This document shows positions 1 through 63,875 of a stretch of DNA of 64,000 nt, piece by piece (within the stretch, counting starts at the first letter, position 1; every line of letters begins with the position of its first letter). A model generated the notes under the pieces. That model was not told the DNA's origin, made no database searches, and saw only the letters and a program-made list of their open reading frames with translations. The DNA comes from a virus: IMG/VR virus record IMGVR_UViG_3300042341_001047; one strand, written 5' to 3'. The position numbers were made by a program, and so were the translations under genes.

Positions 1-244
1 CCCAAGTAAGTTTCTAACAAAAGAAAGATTTGAACTAGTTAAAGATTACTACAAAGTAAGAATGGAGAAGGATGAAATTCTAAGATATAAAAATGTAAAC
101 CAATGGATTAACCCTAAAGGTTGGAGTGTGTATGATATCTTAGATGAAGTTACTTTGAAAAAGATTAAAGAAGTTTACAAAAAATACTACAACTTTGATA
201 ACTTTTATATTTCTAATGATAAGAAAGAATTTAAAATTAAATAA
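1..244 (+). CDS. hypothetical protein (possibly 5'-truncated)
   Basis: ORF track 62..244; may extend beyond the window start. Confidence 0.4.
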   Translation, partial: PSKFLTKERFELVKDYYKVRMEKDEILRYKNVNQWINPKGWSVYDILDEVTLKKIKEVYKKYYNFDNFYISNDKKEFKIK

Positions 245-2601: not shown

Positions 2602-3191
2602 TAGTAGTTAGTTTTTACCCAATCAACCAATTTAAGTAAGTTCTCAGTATTGTGAGGATATTTATTTAAAATAGATTCTAAGAATTTTAATCTACCTTCT
2701 TTATATAACTCACCATAAGCTTTAAATTCTTCATGTATTCCGTTCTCCCACTCTAATAGTTGATCGAAATCTCTTTCAACAATACTCATATCATAGTGAT
2801 TAAATGACTCAGAAAGGTTTGTTGTAGCTTGGTGAGTCTTCGTATCTAAAATCATCTGTCTTACTTCTAAGACATCTTTATTTGACTTATCTGAACAACA
2901 TTCCATAAAGAAATCTGCTGATTTTTCTTCGTTATCACTTTTCATCGGATCATAAACACAATCGTGAAAAAGAGCAGTTAACATTAACTTCTCATATTCT
3001 TTATCTGAGTATTTTGATTTACTTTCATTGATTTGGTCAATCACATCATTTAAGTGATTTAATGTATGGTAAGATCTATGAGATTCATTCCACATTGAAA
3101 GTAATGTATTAACATCACATTTAATATTCCATTTGTTAAGTAATTCTTGTAAGTTCATATTTTTATTTATTTTTATAAAATTCAACTCCAA
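2601..3191 (-). CDS. HD-domain phosphohydrolase (likely start 3158)
   Basis: RSYHTLNH, ALFHDCVYDP, DNEEKSA, ILDTKTH. Confidence 0.8.
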   Translation of the reverse strand: MELNFIKINKNMNLQELLNKWNIKCDVNTLLSMWNESHRSYHTLNHLNDVIDQINESKSKYSDKEYEKLMLTALFHDCVYDPMKSDNEEKSADFFMECCSDKSNKDVLEVRQMILDTKTHQATTNLSESFNHYDMSIVERDFDQLLEWENGIHEEFKAYGELYKEGRLKFLESILNKYPHNTENLLKLVDWVKTNY

Positions 3192-3525
3192 ATTTATTTG
3201 AAATTTGTTCAGCTTTTTCTAAATTTTTTTCTTCAACAAAAAACACCCATTTGAATCCAGGATATTTATCATTTATTTCAAAGATATTATGATTATTTAT
3301 AATATTACCAGTATTATCTACAAATTTAGGTGGAGTGGAGAATCCTTGATTCCACATAAGATTGTCCATTTCTTTTCTAATATTCTCTTTTGTTCTAACA
3401 CTAGTTTTAATAAAGTCCATAATAACAGAAGGATATACGATTTTTTCAATACCCCTACTATTAGTAAACGTAATAGGACTTATCAAAAAACCATCTAAAT
3501 TTTCATTAAATCTTTTAATTTTCAT
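3163..3525 (-). CDS. putative head-targeted protein (MKIKRFNE leader)
   Basis: N-terminal leader motif; TAATATATA on minus strand at 3530-3538. Confidence 0.6.
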   Translation of the reverse strand: MKIKRFNENLDGFLISPITFTNSRGIEKIVYPSVIMDFIKTSVRTKENIRKEMDNLMWNQGFSTPPKFVDNTGNIINNHNIFEINDKYPGFKWVFFVEEKNLEKAEQISNKFGVEFYKNK

Positions 3526-3528
3526 AAA

Positions 3529-3750
3529 CTATATATTAAATATAGATTTGATTCTTTCTTTTCTTATTCTAACTCTTTCATATTTAGAGTGAAGACTATG
3601 CCATTCCATTAAAGAAGCATTAATACTTGACTTACCAGTTTGTCTAGACTTCAACATAATCATATTTTTACCACTAAGTAATTGGCCAAAGACATCAAGA
3701 GTTTCTTTATTATCCATAAATTCTTTTAATTTTTTCTTTTCGTCTTTCAA
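3529..3750 (-). CDS. tagged mini-protein carrying a terminase Walker A fragment
   Basis: MIMLKSRQTGKS plus C-terminal RKERIKSIF. Confidence 0.7.
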   Translation of the reverse strand: MKDEKKKLKEFMDNKETLDVFGQLLSGKNMIMLKSRQTGKSSINASLMEWHSLHSKYERVRIRKERIKSIFNI

Positions 3751-3892
3751 TTTTATCTCTATACTTACGAGAATTAGACATTATTGTATAAATTTCTTTA
3801 CTAAATTTTTCTAAAATATTATTTTGATATTTAGATTTACTCTGATTTATCATACCAATATGATCCAATACAATAATATCTCTTTTAATCAT
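3710..3892 (-). CDS. tagged mini-protein carrying an SF4 helicase Walker B-like fragment
   Basis: DIIVLDHIGMI plus C-terminal RKEKIKRIY. Confidence 0.6.
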   Translation of the reverse strand: MIKRDIIVLDHIGMINQSKSKYQNNILEKFSKEIYTIMSNSRKYRDKIERRKEKIKRIYG

Positions 3893-4124
3893 TTAATAGT
3901 TGGTCAATCTTATTATTTCTTTTTTCCGCTTTTTCTTTAGCCAAACGGATAGCCTTTCGTTCTTCAGATTCTTCTGTTAAATTTGTTGAGTTATAATAAA
4001 CTCCAAGTTGGTCTATTAAGTCCTCATAGTTACTATATTTAGATTCAGATTTATCTAAACCATAAACCATATAATCACCATATTTAGTACCACCAAATAT
4101 GTCTTTGTAATATTCTTCTTTCAT
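3885..4124 (-). CDS. tagged hypothetical protein
   Basis: C-terminal RNNKIDQLL. Confidence 0.65.
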   Translation of the reverse strand: MKEEYYKDIFGGTKYGDYMVYGLDKSESKYSNYEDLIDQLGVYYNSTNLTEESEERKAIRLAKEKAEKRNNKIDQLLND

Positions 4125-4459
4125 TCTAATATATTTTTAATTTTCCAATCTCTTACATTTTCATAAAAATCAATAAAACTATTCATTCTATGATTCTGAA
4201 TATTTTTGAATGATTCTATTTTATTAATAATATCATCAATCAATTCTTTTTCTTCAATTAATTGAGAACCATCTGAACCAGGATATCCTAACCAGATTTT
4301 AGGCTCCTTGTTCTTCCTACCATCTAAACAAATTTCAATTTCATCACTATTTAAATGATGGTCTGATAAGTATTTAGACCATTGTGGTCCACCTAAATTA
4401 CATCTTAGAGAGATAGTTCCCCCGTCTCTATATGAGTCAAAACTTTTTATATTAAGCAT
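4121..4459 (-). CDS. tagged hypothetical protein
   Basis: C-terminal RDWKIKNIL. Confidence 0.65.
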   Translation of the reverse strand: MLNIKSFDSYRDGGTISLRCNLGGPQWSKYLSDHHLNSDEIEICLDGRKNKEPKIWLGYPGSDGSQLIEEKELIDDIINKIESFKNIQNHRMNSFIDFYENVRDWKIKNILE

Positions 4460-20295: not shown

Positions 20296-20631
20296 TTAAT
20301 ATAGTTTACCTGTTTCTAAATAGTAGGTATTATTTGTAGTTATCATTTCAAATGTTTCGTGTATTGATTCACATTTTACCATAAATGATTTTACATCTTC
20401 ATCAGTTAAATCAAACCACTCACCATTTACTTTTTTAGTTTTAAATGTTCTATGTAGTTGTGATTCTATTTTTGTTCCCCATTTTGACTTGAAAGAATTT
20501 ATAACATATAGTTCAGAACCATTACCCGTCTTTAACTCTTTAATTCTTTTAGAGACTTCTCTTCTTGTATAACCTATTTTATACAATCTTCTTCCTTCAA
20601 ATTCAGCACATATTAAGTAAATATTAAACAT
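20296..20631 (-). CDS. GIY-YIG superfamily (T5orf172-type) protein
   Basis: IYLI...YKIGYT..V.KRIKELKTGN...IESQLH...NGEWF. Confidence 0.85.
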   Translation of the reverse strand: MFNIYLICAEFEGRRLYKIGYTRREVSKRIKELKTGNGSELYVINSFKSKWGTKIESQLHRTFKTKKVNGEWFDLTDEDVKSFMVKCESIHETFEMITTNNTYYLETGKLY

Positions 20632-20661: not shown

Positions 20662-20907
20662 TCACCAGATTTGTGGGAAGTTAGTTGGTCCTTTTGGAGT
20701 AGAAGTTATAATAACATTAGGAACATCTATTCCAAATATTTTACCTATTTTTATTTTTCTTAAATATCTTTTAGAATATTCAACACCTGATGTATCTTTT
20801 TCAATGAAGTGAATACCTGGTCTCACATATCTACCTATTCTGTTCATTTGATTTCTTCTTTTTACTTCTTCTTGTTTTCTTGTGAGTTTTAGATGATTCA
20901 GCTCCAT
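20662..20907 (-). CDS. tagged mini-protein carrying a terminase coupling-motif fragment
   Basis: RKIKIGKIFG followed by VIITSTPKGPTNFPQIW. Confidence 0.65.
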   Translation of the reverse strand: MELNHLKLTRKQEEVKRRNQMNRIGRYVRPGIHFIEKDTSGVEYSKRYLRKIKIGKIFGIDVPNVIITSTPKGPTNFPQIW

Positions 20908-21367: not shown

Positions 21368-21679
21368 TTAGTAGTTAAAGTTTAAGAAATCATATTCTTT
21401 AAGTATAAGTTGTTTGACTTTTTCAAAGTTTTCATCTGATAAAACATAATACTTTTTATTAAACCAACCAATCATTTGATTAATAATAACATCTTCTGCT
21501 TCTCCATTTCCTGAGGTAGAGTAAAAATCAGGATCCTCTTCATCTGGAATCCATTGTTTGATTTCTTTTTCTAACATTTTCTTTACAGAATCAGATTTAT
21601 ACTCTTCTTTAATTTTAGTAATTGCAAAAGTAGTATCTTGTTGTTCTACATTCTCGTTATATTTTTTTAAGTATTTCAT
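21368..21679 (-). CDS. putative head-targeted protein
   Basis: MKYLKKYNE leader; TAATATATA upstream. Confidence 0.6.
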   Translation of the reverse strand: MKYLKKYNENVEQQDTTFAITKIKEEYKSDSVKKMLEKEIKQWIPDEEDPDFYSTSGNGEAEDVIINQMIGWFNKKYYVLSDENFEKVKQLILKEYDFLNFNY

Positions 21680-45905: not shown

Positions 45906-46235
45906 TTAGTTTAATACCTGTTTTATTTTTTCGTCTCTTTGATAAGCTTTATAATCTTCTCCTTCCGTGATAAAATATTCTGACATTTCTTGTTCAGTAA
46001 AATAATACCACTTTATTCTCTCACTATATGGTAAATTCCACCAATCTTTTCTACCAGAATGATATCCATGTTGATCATCTTCAACACAAAAACCATATCC
46101 TTTTCTACCATTAACTTCTGGATCAGCATTAAATTCTAAATTACCTCTTCCTTTGATATCATAATGACTACCAACTTTAATAGTTTTGTATTCTTTGACA
46201 CAAACAACTCTTTGACAATCCCATCTATCTTCCAT
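45906..46235 (-). CDS. tagged hypothetical protein
   Basis: C-terminal RDEKIKQVL. Confidence 0.65.
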   Translation of the reverse strand: MEDRWDCQRVVCVKEYKTIKVGSHYDIKGRGNLEFNADPEVNGRKGYGFCVEDDQHGYHSGRKDWWNLPYSERIKWYYFTEQEMSEYFITEGEDYKAYQRDEKIKQVLN

Positions 46236-46392
46236 CGAATAGTTTTTTAATTTTATATTTTCTAGCTTTTATAACATTAACTCTACATCTTAACTTGGAT
46301 AACTCTGAGTAAACATCAGTTACATTCATAGCACCGTAGCTCGAGTTCAAAATCATCTTGTAATAAGCTAATTTACTTTCTAATTCTCTCAT
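46225..46392 (-). CDS. unlisted 55-aa tagged mini-protein carrying the family B DNA polymerase motif
   Basis: Manual translation MRELESKLAYYKMILNSSYGAMNVTDVYSELSKLRCRVNVIKARKYKIKKLFDGR; overlaps both neighbours (ATGA coupling upstream). Confidence 0.75.
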   Translation of the reverse strand: MRELESKLAYYKMILNSSYGAMNVTDVYSELSKLRCRVNVIKARKYKIKKLFDGR

Positions 46393-61897: not shown

Positions 61898-62464
61898 ATG
61901 AAAAGATTTTCAGATATTAAAAAAGTAAAAGTTAAAAAAATCAACGAAGCCGAAGGTGAATCAAATTTACCTTCAAACTACGAAGATATGTCAAAAGAAG
62001 AACTTTTAGCTCTTATGTCAGGTAAAAAAGAACAACCTGAACCAGAAAAGAAAGAAGAAGAAAAGAAAGAAGTATCTAACGAAGGTGGTGATGTTTCTAA
62101 ATTCATCTCTAAATTGTTAGAAAGTAGAGAGATGGCTCAAGTTTATCACTGGACGGTTAAAGGTGATATGGGTTCACACGCAGCTCACTTAGCATTAGAA
62201 GCTTACTACAGTGGTGTTATTGAATTTATTGATGATATCGTTGAGGTTTATCAAGGTCAATATGGTTTAATTGAAGGATATGATCAAATTGCTACAGATG
62301 AAACAAGATCTAAAGATAAATTGGATTACTTCAAAGAAGTTGTTGAATTTGTTAAATCAGAAAGAAGTTGCATTAAAGTAGAAGATACACACTTACATAC
62401 TATAATAGATGAGGTTGTAGTTCTTATTTACAAAACAATCTACAAATTAACTTACAATAAATAA
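61898..62464 (+). CDS. ferritin/Dps-like four-helix protein with leader
   Basis: YHWTVKG..GSHAAHLALEAYY...DDIVEVYQGQYG...IIDE...YKL. Confidence 0.7.
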   Translation: MKRFSDIKKVKVKKINEAEGESNLPSNYEDMSKEELLALMSGKKEQPEPEKKEEEKKEVSNEGGDVSKFISKLLESREMAQVYHWTVKGDMGSHAAHLALEAYYSGVIEFIDDIVEVYQGQYGLIEGYDQIATDETRSKDKLDYFKEVVEFVKSERSCIKVEDTHLHTIIDEVVVLIYKTIYKLTYNK

Positions 62465-63016: not shown

Positions 63017-63045
63017 AAAATCCCACTTAATAAGTGGGATTTTTT
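63017..63045. terminator. bidirectional intrinsic terminator
   Basis: aaaatcccactta-a-taagtgggattttt. Confidence 0.8.
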
Positions 63046-63284
63046 ATTTCTATAGTTCCGTAAAAGTTATTATTTATAATCTTTTTAGAGTATCTACTCA
63101 TAATTGATTTACTTGGTGAGAATTCATCTTTAACATCTAAACCTAAACCAAATATCTTATTAATCTTTCTTTTTCTACTTACATTCTTAGAAGTATATCC
63201 AGATATAACAGAAGTGGTTGTCAATGGAATATAAGGAGCAAAAACATAACCTTGTTCTAAATTACTTTTCTTTCCTATTATCAT
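63027..63284 (-). CDS. tagged fragment of T4-type major capsid protein (C-terminal part)
   Basis: GYVFAPYIPL...[RKRKINKIFG]...FSPSKSIMSRYSK...FYGTI. Confidence 0.72.
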   Translation of the reverse strand: MIIGKKSNLEQGYVFAPYIPLTTTSVISGYTSKNVSRKRKINKIFGLGLDVKDEFSPSKSIMSRYSKKIINNNFYGTIEIKNPTY

Positions 63285-63420
63285 TGAATATTTTTTTAAT
63301 TTTTTCTTTTCTTTTATCTTTTCTAAGAAAAGAACTTAAAAAGTTCATAGAAGAATAGTCATGTAATCTACTTCCAGGTCCACCTAGTACAACATTCCAC
63401 TCATCTCTCGCTTTTATCAT
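63262..63420 (-). CDS. unlisted 52-aa tagged mini-protein
   Basis: MIKARDEWNVVLGGPGSRLHDYSSMNFLSSFLRKDKRKEKIKKIFNDNRKEK. Confidence 0.6.
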   Translation of the reverse strand: MIKARDEWNVVLGGPGSRLHDYSSMNFLSSFLRKDKRKEKIKKIFNDNRKEK

Positions 63421-63535
63421 ATAATCTTTTGATTTTATTTTTTCTCTTTTCAGATCTTTCTTTTTTAGACCATCTGAAAATTGAATCTGTTATAGACTCT
63501 TGAAACTCTTTTGATTGATTTTCCCAAATTGACAT
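63401..63535 (-). CDS. unlisted 44-aa tagged mini-protein
   Basis: MSIWENQSKEFQESITDSIFRWSKKERSEKRKNKIKRLYDKSER. Confidence 0.6.
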   Translation of the reverse strand: MSIWENQSKEFQESITDSIFRWSKKERSEKRKNKIKRLYDKSER

Positions 63536-63557: not shown

Positions 63558-63875
63558 CTACTTGTTTTCTGTGTACATATACTTTCTACCAGTATCATTA
63601 TAATCCATTAGATTATTAACAACGGTATCAATCTTATCTTTAGAATCATCAACATCTTTTTTGATAACTTGAAGCGCAGCAATTGAATCATCTATCTGAT
63701 CATTTCCTTTTTTAGAATCACTTTTGAAATTATTTAATTCATTTAGTAATGATTCTACTGATTTTGATTTATCATCCATGATAGAAGCAAAGTCTTTTAA
63801 CTCCTCAATAATTTCTGCTACTCTTTCTGATGAAATATCTACTTGTTCATCTTCATTGAATCTTCTAATTTTCAT
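63558..63875 (-). CDS. coiled-coil putative head-targeted protein
   Basis: MKIRRFNE leader. Confidence 0.6.
   Translation of the reverse strand: MKIRRFNEDEQVDISSERVAEIIEELKDFASIMDDKSKSVESLLNELNNFKSDSKKGNDQIDDSIAALQVIKKDVDDSKDKIDTVVNNLMDYNDTGRKYMYTENK

Follow-up and report, generated by a model that had tools for sequence, protein, structure and literature searches.

A conserved mini-protein of freshwater huge phages joins strands of gp23-type capsid origin to a basic helical tag

Why would a phage with an intact capsid gene keep, far from its head genes, a small open reading frame (ORF) that resembles the very end of a capsid protein, and is such an ORF a gene in its own right or what is left of a broken one? 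The ORF that raises this question, referred to here as ORF C (mini-protein P0001, 85 aa), is located on the minus strand at positions 63027–63284 of the window, i.e., the whole 64-kb stretch of DNA analyzed, and its minus-strand translation is identical to the residues quoted for it in a preliminary description of this DNA. The window is the start of a 175,660-bp virus contig with a GC content of approximately 28%, and a contig position is the window position minus 209; window positions 1–209 are real sequence, yet they lie outside the stored contig (C1), the starts of the window and of the stored contig being different. The resident capsid gene is intact (583 aa; contig 116–117.5 kb) and belongs to a head module extending to approximately 120 kb, with a protease–scaffold gene upstream of it (contig 116–120 kb), whereas ORF C is found at contig 62.8 kb, 53 kb away from this module. 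The resident terminase gene is likewise intact. The prohead protease and the scaffold are fused in a single frame of more than 700 aa (L085:1-1914, L001:3282-4430; contig C1 approximately 117.9–120 kb), which contains about a dozen tandem 13-residue repeats of the YSEY-[IL]-AENLDKNI type. Because the resident capsid protein shares 73% identity with its counterparts in uncultured huge phages of 634–642 kb and 29% with the capsid proteins of Lak phages, the contig is, on the evidence of this protein, a fragment of a huge phage that probably infects Bacteroidota.

ORF C is the last gene of a transcription unit that comprises, in order and all on the minus strand, a 105-aa acidic gene, ORF A, ORF B, and ORF C, followed by a terminator. 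Briefly, the 105-aa gene (63558–63875) encodes an acidic helical protein with the N-terminus MKIRRFNE (pI 4.5, net charge −8.5); ORF A (63401–63535, 44 aa) and ORF B (63262–63420, 52 aa) are micro-ORFs that carry the tags RKNKIKRLY (63419–63445) and RKEKIKKIF (63286–63312), respectively; and a bidirectional intrinsic terminator hairpin at 63017–63043, which overlaps the final ORF C codons (PTY and the stop), closes the unit. In ORFs A and B, the tag stands at the end and is directly followed by the ATG of the next ORF in another frame, and ORFs B and C overlap by 23 nt in different frames. The products of ORFs C, B, and A carry net charges of +8.5, +6.6, and +4.5 (pI of C, 9.95), as opposed to the acidic 105-aa protein. 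On the plus strand, window 61898–62464 encodes a 188-aa protein that matches PHROG 858, a Dps-like starvation-inducible regulator (E = 3e-16); it is DUF5856 in relatives, across which its synteny with the mini-protein locus is kept.

The capsid resemblance of ORF C is divided between two arms flanking an inserted loop. The N arm (residues 1–28, IIGKK...GYVFAPYIPL...; 63201–63284) is homologous to capsid residues ~512–540, and the C arm (residues 54–85, EFSPSKSIMSRYSKK...FYGTIEI; 63030–63125) to residues ~545–573; the loop between them (residues 29–53; 63126–63200) is absent in full capsid proteins and holds the tag core RKRKINKIF (residues 37–45; 63150–63176). The reference for this comparison was the full 583-aa gp23-type capsid protein encoded at L014:968-2716 on a T4-like viral contig, which itself matches solved T4 gp23 structures at E ~1e-24. 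In hhalign, the ORF C family alignment matched this protein with a probability of 98.2% and E = 4.7e-14, at 50% identity over 60 columns spanning capsid residues 512–573, and the stretch holding RKRKINKIF was left as an unmatched insertion. This profile comparison bears out the preliminary description, which had read the ORF as a C-terminal fragment of a gp23-type protein with RKRKINKIFG inserted in a loop and had proposed a check of the Gp23 similarity. Furthermore, the distance between the APY and S/T-R-Y motifs is 21 residues in full capsid proteins (n = 3) and 43 residues in 116 of the 204 short relatives; therefore, approximately 22 residues are inserted in the loop of the mini-protein. 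The Pfam Gp23 model (PF07068) reaches ORF C at E = 6.5e-4 and 19.7 bits, under its 24.4-bit cut-off, and is matched at E ≤ 0.01 by 17 of 54 family members, with a best E of 4.2e-10. The resident capsid protein is matched by one arm only (E = 1.3e-3). In tblastn, the arms share 32–39% identity with capsid C-termini of cultured T4-like phages of Flavobacterium or cyanobacteria.

Judged by these similarities, ORF C is derived from the last ~60 residues of a gp23-type major capsid protein, and the donor lineage differs from that of the phage's own capsid protein; a basic amphipathic helix of ~22 residues is inserted in the loop between the last strands. Compared with T4 gp23 (PF07068; 5VF3, 7VS5, 8GMO), the arms are homologous to the last strands and include the APY and SRY/TRY motifs, whereas the mini-protein has only ~60 of ~580 capsid residues, carries the 22-residue basic helix, and lies outside the head module of a phage with a separate intact capsid gene. 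A complete HK97 fold with its N-arm, E-loop, and P and A domains takes ~450–580 aa and cannot be formed by these residues. ORF C is thus a homologue of the gp23-type family that departs from it in size, fold, Pfam cut-off, and genomic context. In the ESM Atlas, it is grouped with viral clusters of ~80 aa labelled Gp23 domain-containing.

Conservation and selection indicate that ORF C is a real, conserved gene in a clade of freshwater huge phages. A word-indexed search yielded 356 database clusters at 75–96% identity, nearly all of 82–88 aa with a length mode of 85, and a profile search of 1.84 billion representatives (E ≤ 1e-3) yielded 435 hits, most of 65–130 aa and few of them full capsid proteins. 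R37, K38, K40, I41, I44, and F45, together with the capsid motifs, are invariant in the 121 closest sequences. Distant members, down to 30% identity, keep the plan of arm, basic amphipathic helix, and arm, with G12, Y13, P17, Y18, S63, R64, Y65, and Y75 nearly invariant. Among 55 loci fetched, 53 were uncut by a contig end and were counted as complete, and ORF C is open in all 53 at a synonymous divergence of ~0.34. The dN/dS ratio, from 43 unique coding sequences, is 0.40 for the whole of ORF C, 0.32 for the N arm (core, residues 12–28), 0.46 for the C arm, and 0.07 for the tag, where pS (0.36) equals the synonymous divergence of the flanks; the helix is thus the most constrained part of the mini-protein. 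For calibration, the ratio is 0.09 in the 105-aa gene, which remains syntenic with the mini-protein even in L015, where the latter is only 36–41% identical. Neither frameshifts or stops in relatives nor a dN/dS near 1, the marks of a pseudogene, were found, and the earlier argument for selection over decay is upheld by the hundreds of homologues of the same length, the 53 open copies, and these ratios. Close relatives were absent from 185,579 bacterial and archaeal species genomes, PHROGs holds no family for the mini-protein, and a search for longer proteins with the same insert gave just one artefactual fusion. A weak Pfam match to DUF6947, seen in a single family member, was dismissed.

The tag of ORF C recurs across the genome. 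The motif R-x-x-K-[IL]-x-x-[IL]-[FLY] is common to ORF C and to the tails of approximately 20 other small ORFs, and a stricter form, R-[KRDE]-x-[KR]-[IL]-x-x-[IL]-[FYL], gives 17 six-frame hits vs. 0–3 (about 1) in Markov shuffles and 1 in reversed proteins. A looser pattern is present in 22 ORF tails at a distance of at most nine residues from the stop, ~20 of them convincing; tagged tails account for 5.2% of candidate ORFs (at least 35 aa, on the ~176-kb contig) vs. 0.14% of internal windows, a 38-fold enrichment over the internal control. The tag is usually 1–7 residues from the C-terminus and is then followed by N, D, or G, and hits of the loose pattern in ORFs of at least 40 aa are terminal in 18 of 32 cases; that of ORF C is internal, 40 residues before the stop, and the relatives P0139 and P0147 of the mini-protein carry a second, terminal tag. 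In the close relatives G002 and G004, the tag is enriched with the same strand bias (7 and 9 hits vs. 0 and 1 in the control); enrichment is slight in a third relative, G001 (5 vs. 2), and absent in the distant G003.

Several tag carriers are fragments of hallmark proteins. The tagged capsid region that the preliminary description had placed at 20831 is indeed present: the piece at 20831–21328 matches capsid residues 22–91 (BLASTP, E = 9e-11). A mid-helix capsid module lies elsewhere on the contig (L002:1450-1665; Pfam Gp23, E = 4e-10). A tagged carrier of the terminase Walker A motif matches the resident terminase at E = 1e-3 and one of terminase motif III at E = 0.023, and a motif-B piece of polymerase B and primase-like zinc ribbons are recognized by eye or by weak Pfam scores only. 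The densest tag array, on the minus strand at window 3529–4459, comprises four consecutive overlapping ORFs of 112, 79, 60, and 62 aa, each ending in a tag, and the last carries the terminase Walker A motif. Beside tagged arrays, at window 63558–63875, 3163–3525, and 21368–21679 (all minus strand), are N-termini of the MK-[IY]-[KRL]-[KR]-[FY]-NE type, which resemble T4 head-targeting leaders; the tag core K-I-K-R-L-F-N resembles such a leader with one additional residue, and the two motifs may be related or may bind the same partner. The ORF directly downstream of the L002 mid-helix fragment (413 aa; L002:168-1409, contig C1 approximately 101.7–102.9 kb, minus strand) has no Pfam or PHROG match.

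When the tagged ORFs are aligned on the tag, second codon positions show no variation, third positions vary freely, and the codon families for Arg, Leu, and Ile replace one another; therefore, selection acts on the peptide and not on DNA. A DNA or RNA signal (promoter, translation start region, or mobile-element end) was rejected on this peptide-like codon pattern. Nor does the tag signal the start of the following gene, given that a terminator comes after two of the tags and two occupy internal positions; an ATG often occurs just past the tag, and the best explanation is that the downstream gene extends its overlap as far as the constrained helix with its N/D cap. A mobile in-frame insert of the RPE or MITE kind was likewise rejected, as the flanks are unrelated and only first and second codon positions are conserved. 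Rickettsia palindromic elements are selfish DNA inserted in frame in genes, and the tag resembles them as a recurrent short peptide-coding insert in unrelated coding sequences; it differs in that only nine residues are common, what is conserved is the amino-acid sequence and not the DNA, and repeats or palindromes are missing from the ends. An alternative genetic code was rejected too, the pieces differing by frame and not by stops, with the resident capsid and terminase genes open under table 11.

Structure prediction places the only regular element of ORF C in the tag. AlphaFold was run twice, on a shallow and on a diverse alignment, and both times gave a helix at residues 33–45 as the sole predicted element and no sheet (pLDDT 50 and 67, pTM 0.21 and 0.27), the helix block reaching pLDDT 75–84; the hydrophobic moment is maximal over residues 38–51. 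Foldseek against the PDB found no match for the model. On these predictions, ORF C would probably become ordered only upon binding something.

With these observations in hand, the reading that we tentatively prefer, while giving it somewhat less than an even chance, is that ORF C is a two-part adaptor or competitor in which the capsid strands act as bait while the helix provides a docking handle shared with the other tagged proteins. The mini-protein would have no fold of its own, and its extended arms would bind a T4-type capsid protein by strand addition, as is suggested because they keep the most conserved capsid residues yet cannot fold alone; alternatively, they would bind a factor recognizing that part of the capsid protein, which could be a host sensor, a chaperone, or an assembly partner. 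Docking of the complex on one partner common to all tagged mini-proteins would then fall to the helix, a proposal made because the helix is the most constrained part and is common to unrelated carriers. A candidate for this hub is the co-transcribed 105-aa protein, given its acidic net charge (−8.5) as opposed to the basic C, B, and A. The likely outcome would be that a capsid-binding activity is sequestered, blocked, or relocated; as to the target, the similarity of the arms to a foreign capsid lineage suggests that it may be either a competing T4-like phage or a host defense sensor. Against this reading, the arms (0.32–0.46 vs. 0.09 in the neighboring gene) are only loosely constrained for what would be a specific bait, 30-residue pieces may not suffice in size to pass for a folded capsid protein with receptors that sense folds, and the tag could serve packaging, membrane binding, or degradation as a degron without any bait function.

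Known systems provide partial parallels to such an adaptor. T4 internal proteins carry a capsid-targeting sequence, and T4 gp43, gp33, and gp55 carry C-terminal clamp-binding tails; as in those cases, one short, mostly terminal motif is found on many unrelated small phage proteins, and a common docking partner is implied because the motif recurs on ~20 otherwise unrelated small proteins. Unlike those tails, the motif R-x-x-K-[IL]-x-x-[IL]-[FLY] is also found internally or ahead of the other part of the protein, and many carriers are hallmark-protein fragments. A comparison with the PIP box, which has Q at position 1 and hydrophobic residues at positions 4, 7, and 8, shows that the K-x-x-I-x-x-I-F spacing fits but that the tag has K, D, or E at position 1 and its invariant R outside the box; a gp45-type clamp was not found on this partial contig. 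Ccm of SaPIbov5, a full HK97-fold capsid homologue of a phage satellite, interferes with capsids, and ORF C is comparable as a capsid derivative kept by an element other than the one whose capsid it resembles, and as one that plausibly acts on capsid assembly; ORF C differs in that a huge phage encodes it and that it consists of a mere fragment of strands into which a foreign helix is set. The Gol peptide, a 29-residue segment of T4 gp23, is by itself sufficient to activate the Lit protease, and CapRel and Avs families include capsid-sensing defenses. A 2026 preprint (bioRxiv 10.64898/2026.01.04.697583) shows that bacterial Avs receptors respond to capsid protein, RecA-fold ATPases, and DNA polymerases, and it describes no phage-encoded decoy fragment; terminase and portal sensing had been shown in earlier work.

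What the Gol and Avs cases have in common with ORF C is that defenses can bind mere segments or parts of core phage proteins, and the set of Avs-sensed proteins overlaps the set of tagged fragments in this phage. Gol, CapRel, and Avs differ from the mini-protein in that they concern host sensors acting on full phage proteins, and Avs receptors recognize folds, which an unfolded 85-mer does not offer. A broader extension of the adaptor reading, which we regard as unlikely, is that freshwater huge phages maintain a dispersed library of mini-proteins in which fragments of hallmark proteins (capsid, terminase, polymerase, and P-loop ATPase) are joined to a common docking helix and act as decoys or dominant-negative baits against host receptors sensing the core phage proteome or against competing phages, ORF C being the most widespread and best conserved member; if true, it would be categorically new.

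As for novelty, a short peptide common to many phage proteins is a known principle, whereas the mini-protein, the tag motif, its tolerance of position, and its hallmark-fragment carriers are not described in Pfam, PHROGs, or the literature searched. Should the tag prove to be a docking handle and the capsid strands bait, phages would have a way of recycling pieces of hallmark proteins into small regulators or decoys, which would bear on the sensing of conserved phage proteins by hosts and on the answers of phages or their competitors. Independently of function, a previously unannotated family, widespread in lake metagenomes with hundreds of clusters labelled only hypothetical or Gp23 domain-containing, is now defined, as is a nine-residue motif marking ~5% of candidate ORFs of at least 35 aa on the contig. 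Such ORFs risk being mistaken for truncated capsid genes or being overlooked entirely.

The rival that survives best, possible and yet less probable than an adaptor, is that ORF C serves the phage's own capsid, either as a head accessory or as a packaged protein, whose strands add onto the resident capsid lattice and whose helix is a capsid-targeting or cargo-loading peptide, the ~20 tagged proteins being head cargo. Targeting and cargo peptides include the T4 capsid-targeting sequence, the C-terminal tail of the HK97 protease, and the encapsulin cargo peptide, and the mostly terminal position of the tag is similar to theirs. Co-transcription with a strongly conserved 105-aa protein whose MKIRRFNE start is like T4-type head-targeting leaders, and the resemblance of the KIKR-L-F-N core to such a leader, are also consistent with this explanation. 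However, the resident capsid lineage matches the arms far less well than a foreign one does, the locus is 53 kb away from the head module of the phage, no motif for protease cleavage was identified, and there is no obvious reason for packaging terminase or polymerase fragments.

Less credible still, and in our estimate improbable, is that the tag is a membrane-targeting amphipathic helix like those of MinD or FtsA, or else that it works like RRKKAI of MuA as a degron or a handle for chaperones, with arms that are largely passengers. A short, basic, amphipathic tag usually placed 1–7 residues from the C-terminus, with a peak of hydrophobic moment as in ORF C, would suit such a role, and we take the tag to be comparable to the MinD C-terminus and ClpX C-motif 2. 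R and K are, by contrast, invariant at fixed positions, which is unusual in lipid-binding helices, and the arms are not mere passengers because the most conserved capsid residues are nearly invariant down to 30% identity.

The region upstream of ORF C bears on both its origin and the possibility of a remnant. In relatives, it consists of a 24-nt gap (L006), ORF A alone, ORFs A and B, or other modules, and modules are gained, lost, fused, or frameshifted between close relatives, including in-frame fusions of A to C in L049 and of A to B in L008; ORF B is present in only some relatives, and ORF A is widespread though not universal (dN/dS 0.47 and 0.45, respectively, and 0.13 for the tag of B). 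One module found upstream of ORF C in relatives corresponds to capsid residues 353–399 (mid-helix; hhalign, E = 2.7e-10), is homologous to the L002 mid-helix module of this contig, and ends in a tag, as does another that starts with FVDPNQ and resembles the capsid DPY strand by eye. A by-eye alignment of ORFs A and B with capsid residues ~425–510 was unsupported (hhalign, E = 0.44 and 0.27). Because the upstream DNA of relatives holds other capsid-derived pieces ending in tags, the locus most likely descends from a capsid gene that once followed the 105-aa gene and later broke up into tagged modules, of which only C is always kept. The preliminary description had allowed that ORF C might be merely the end of a decayed full capsid gene; the origin as the 3′ end of a broken capsid gene stands, and the decay does not, since the fragment is kept as its own gene. 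It is accordingly very unlikely that ORF C is a non-functional remnant of a broken second capsid gene persisting between a conserved gene and a shared terminator. The instability of upstream capsid-derived modules, the evolution of the arms at four to five times the rate of the neighboring gene, and the overlap of the last codons with the terminator hairpin would fit a remnant, but this explanation is largely refuted by the open frame in every complete copy in spite of the synonymous divergence, by the architecture kept to 30% identity in hundreds of clusters, by the constraint on the tag, and by the persistence of ORF C in L006, where everything upstream is deleted.

It appears highly improbable that the mini-proteins are peptide substrates, i.e., RiPP-like precursors modified by a tag-recognizing enzyme. 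The leaders of NHLP and Nif11 RiPP precursors derive from enzyme fragments, and two distant family members directly follow a radical SAM gene in unrelated large phages (L080:3922-5291 and L081:3811-5267, on contigs of 135 and 219 kb), but these radical SAM proteins match only generic viperin/MoaA-type models far under the cut-offs, and no such enzyme occurs near ORF C within the window or in close relatives. The radical SAM clusters also hold methyltransferases, glycosyltransferases, and a UDP-glucose dehydrogenase. Finally, the joining of A, B, and C into one product by frameshifting or bypassing of the T4 gene 60 type at the lysine-rich tags, for which the +1 frame change directly past the tag in A-rich sequence at every junction in the window may speak, is dismissed as exceedingly improbable, considering that frame relations vary (A is in the frame of C in L007 and L012), L049 and L008 carry in-frame A–C and A–B fusions, many relatives lack B, the junctions have no slippery site in common, every piece starts with an ATG of its own, and no frame change follows the tag in C.

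Two further observations concern the hallmark genes from which tagged fragments may come. A split or trans-assembled essential gene was rejected for the capsid and the terminase, of which intact copies exist. The C-terminal half of the family B DNA polymerase, by contrast, is absent from the contig: the polymerase gene encodes just 509 aa (L021:1468-2997; contig C1 approximately 85.3–86.8 kb) and stops past motif A and short of motif B, with the next gene on the opposite strand, and motif C (DTDS) was found nowhere on the whole contig. The sole KxxxNSxYG motif on the contig is in a 55-aa tagged micro-ORF at window 46225–46392 (minus strand), 39 kb from the polymerase gene, which may be a split gene whose second half is on the part of the genome that the contig lacks. 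The capsid N-terminal and terminase motif-III fragments are directly followed downstream, at window 20296–20631 (minus strand), by the gene for a 111-aa T5orf172/MUG113-domain protein (Pfam, E = 5e-20); this protein may be a homing-type nuclease and could bear on the capture of hallmark-gene fragments.
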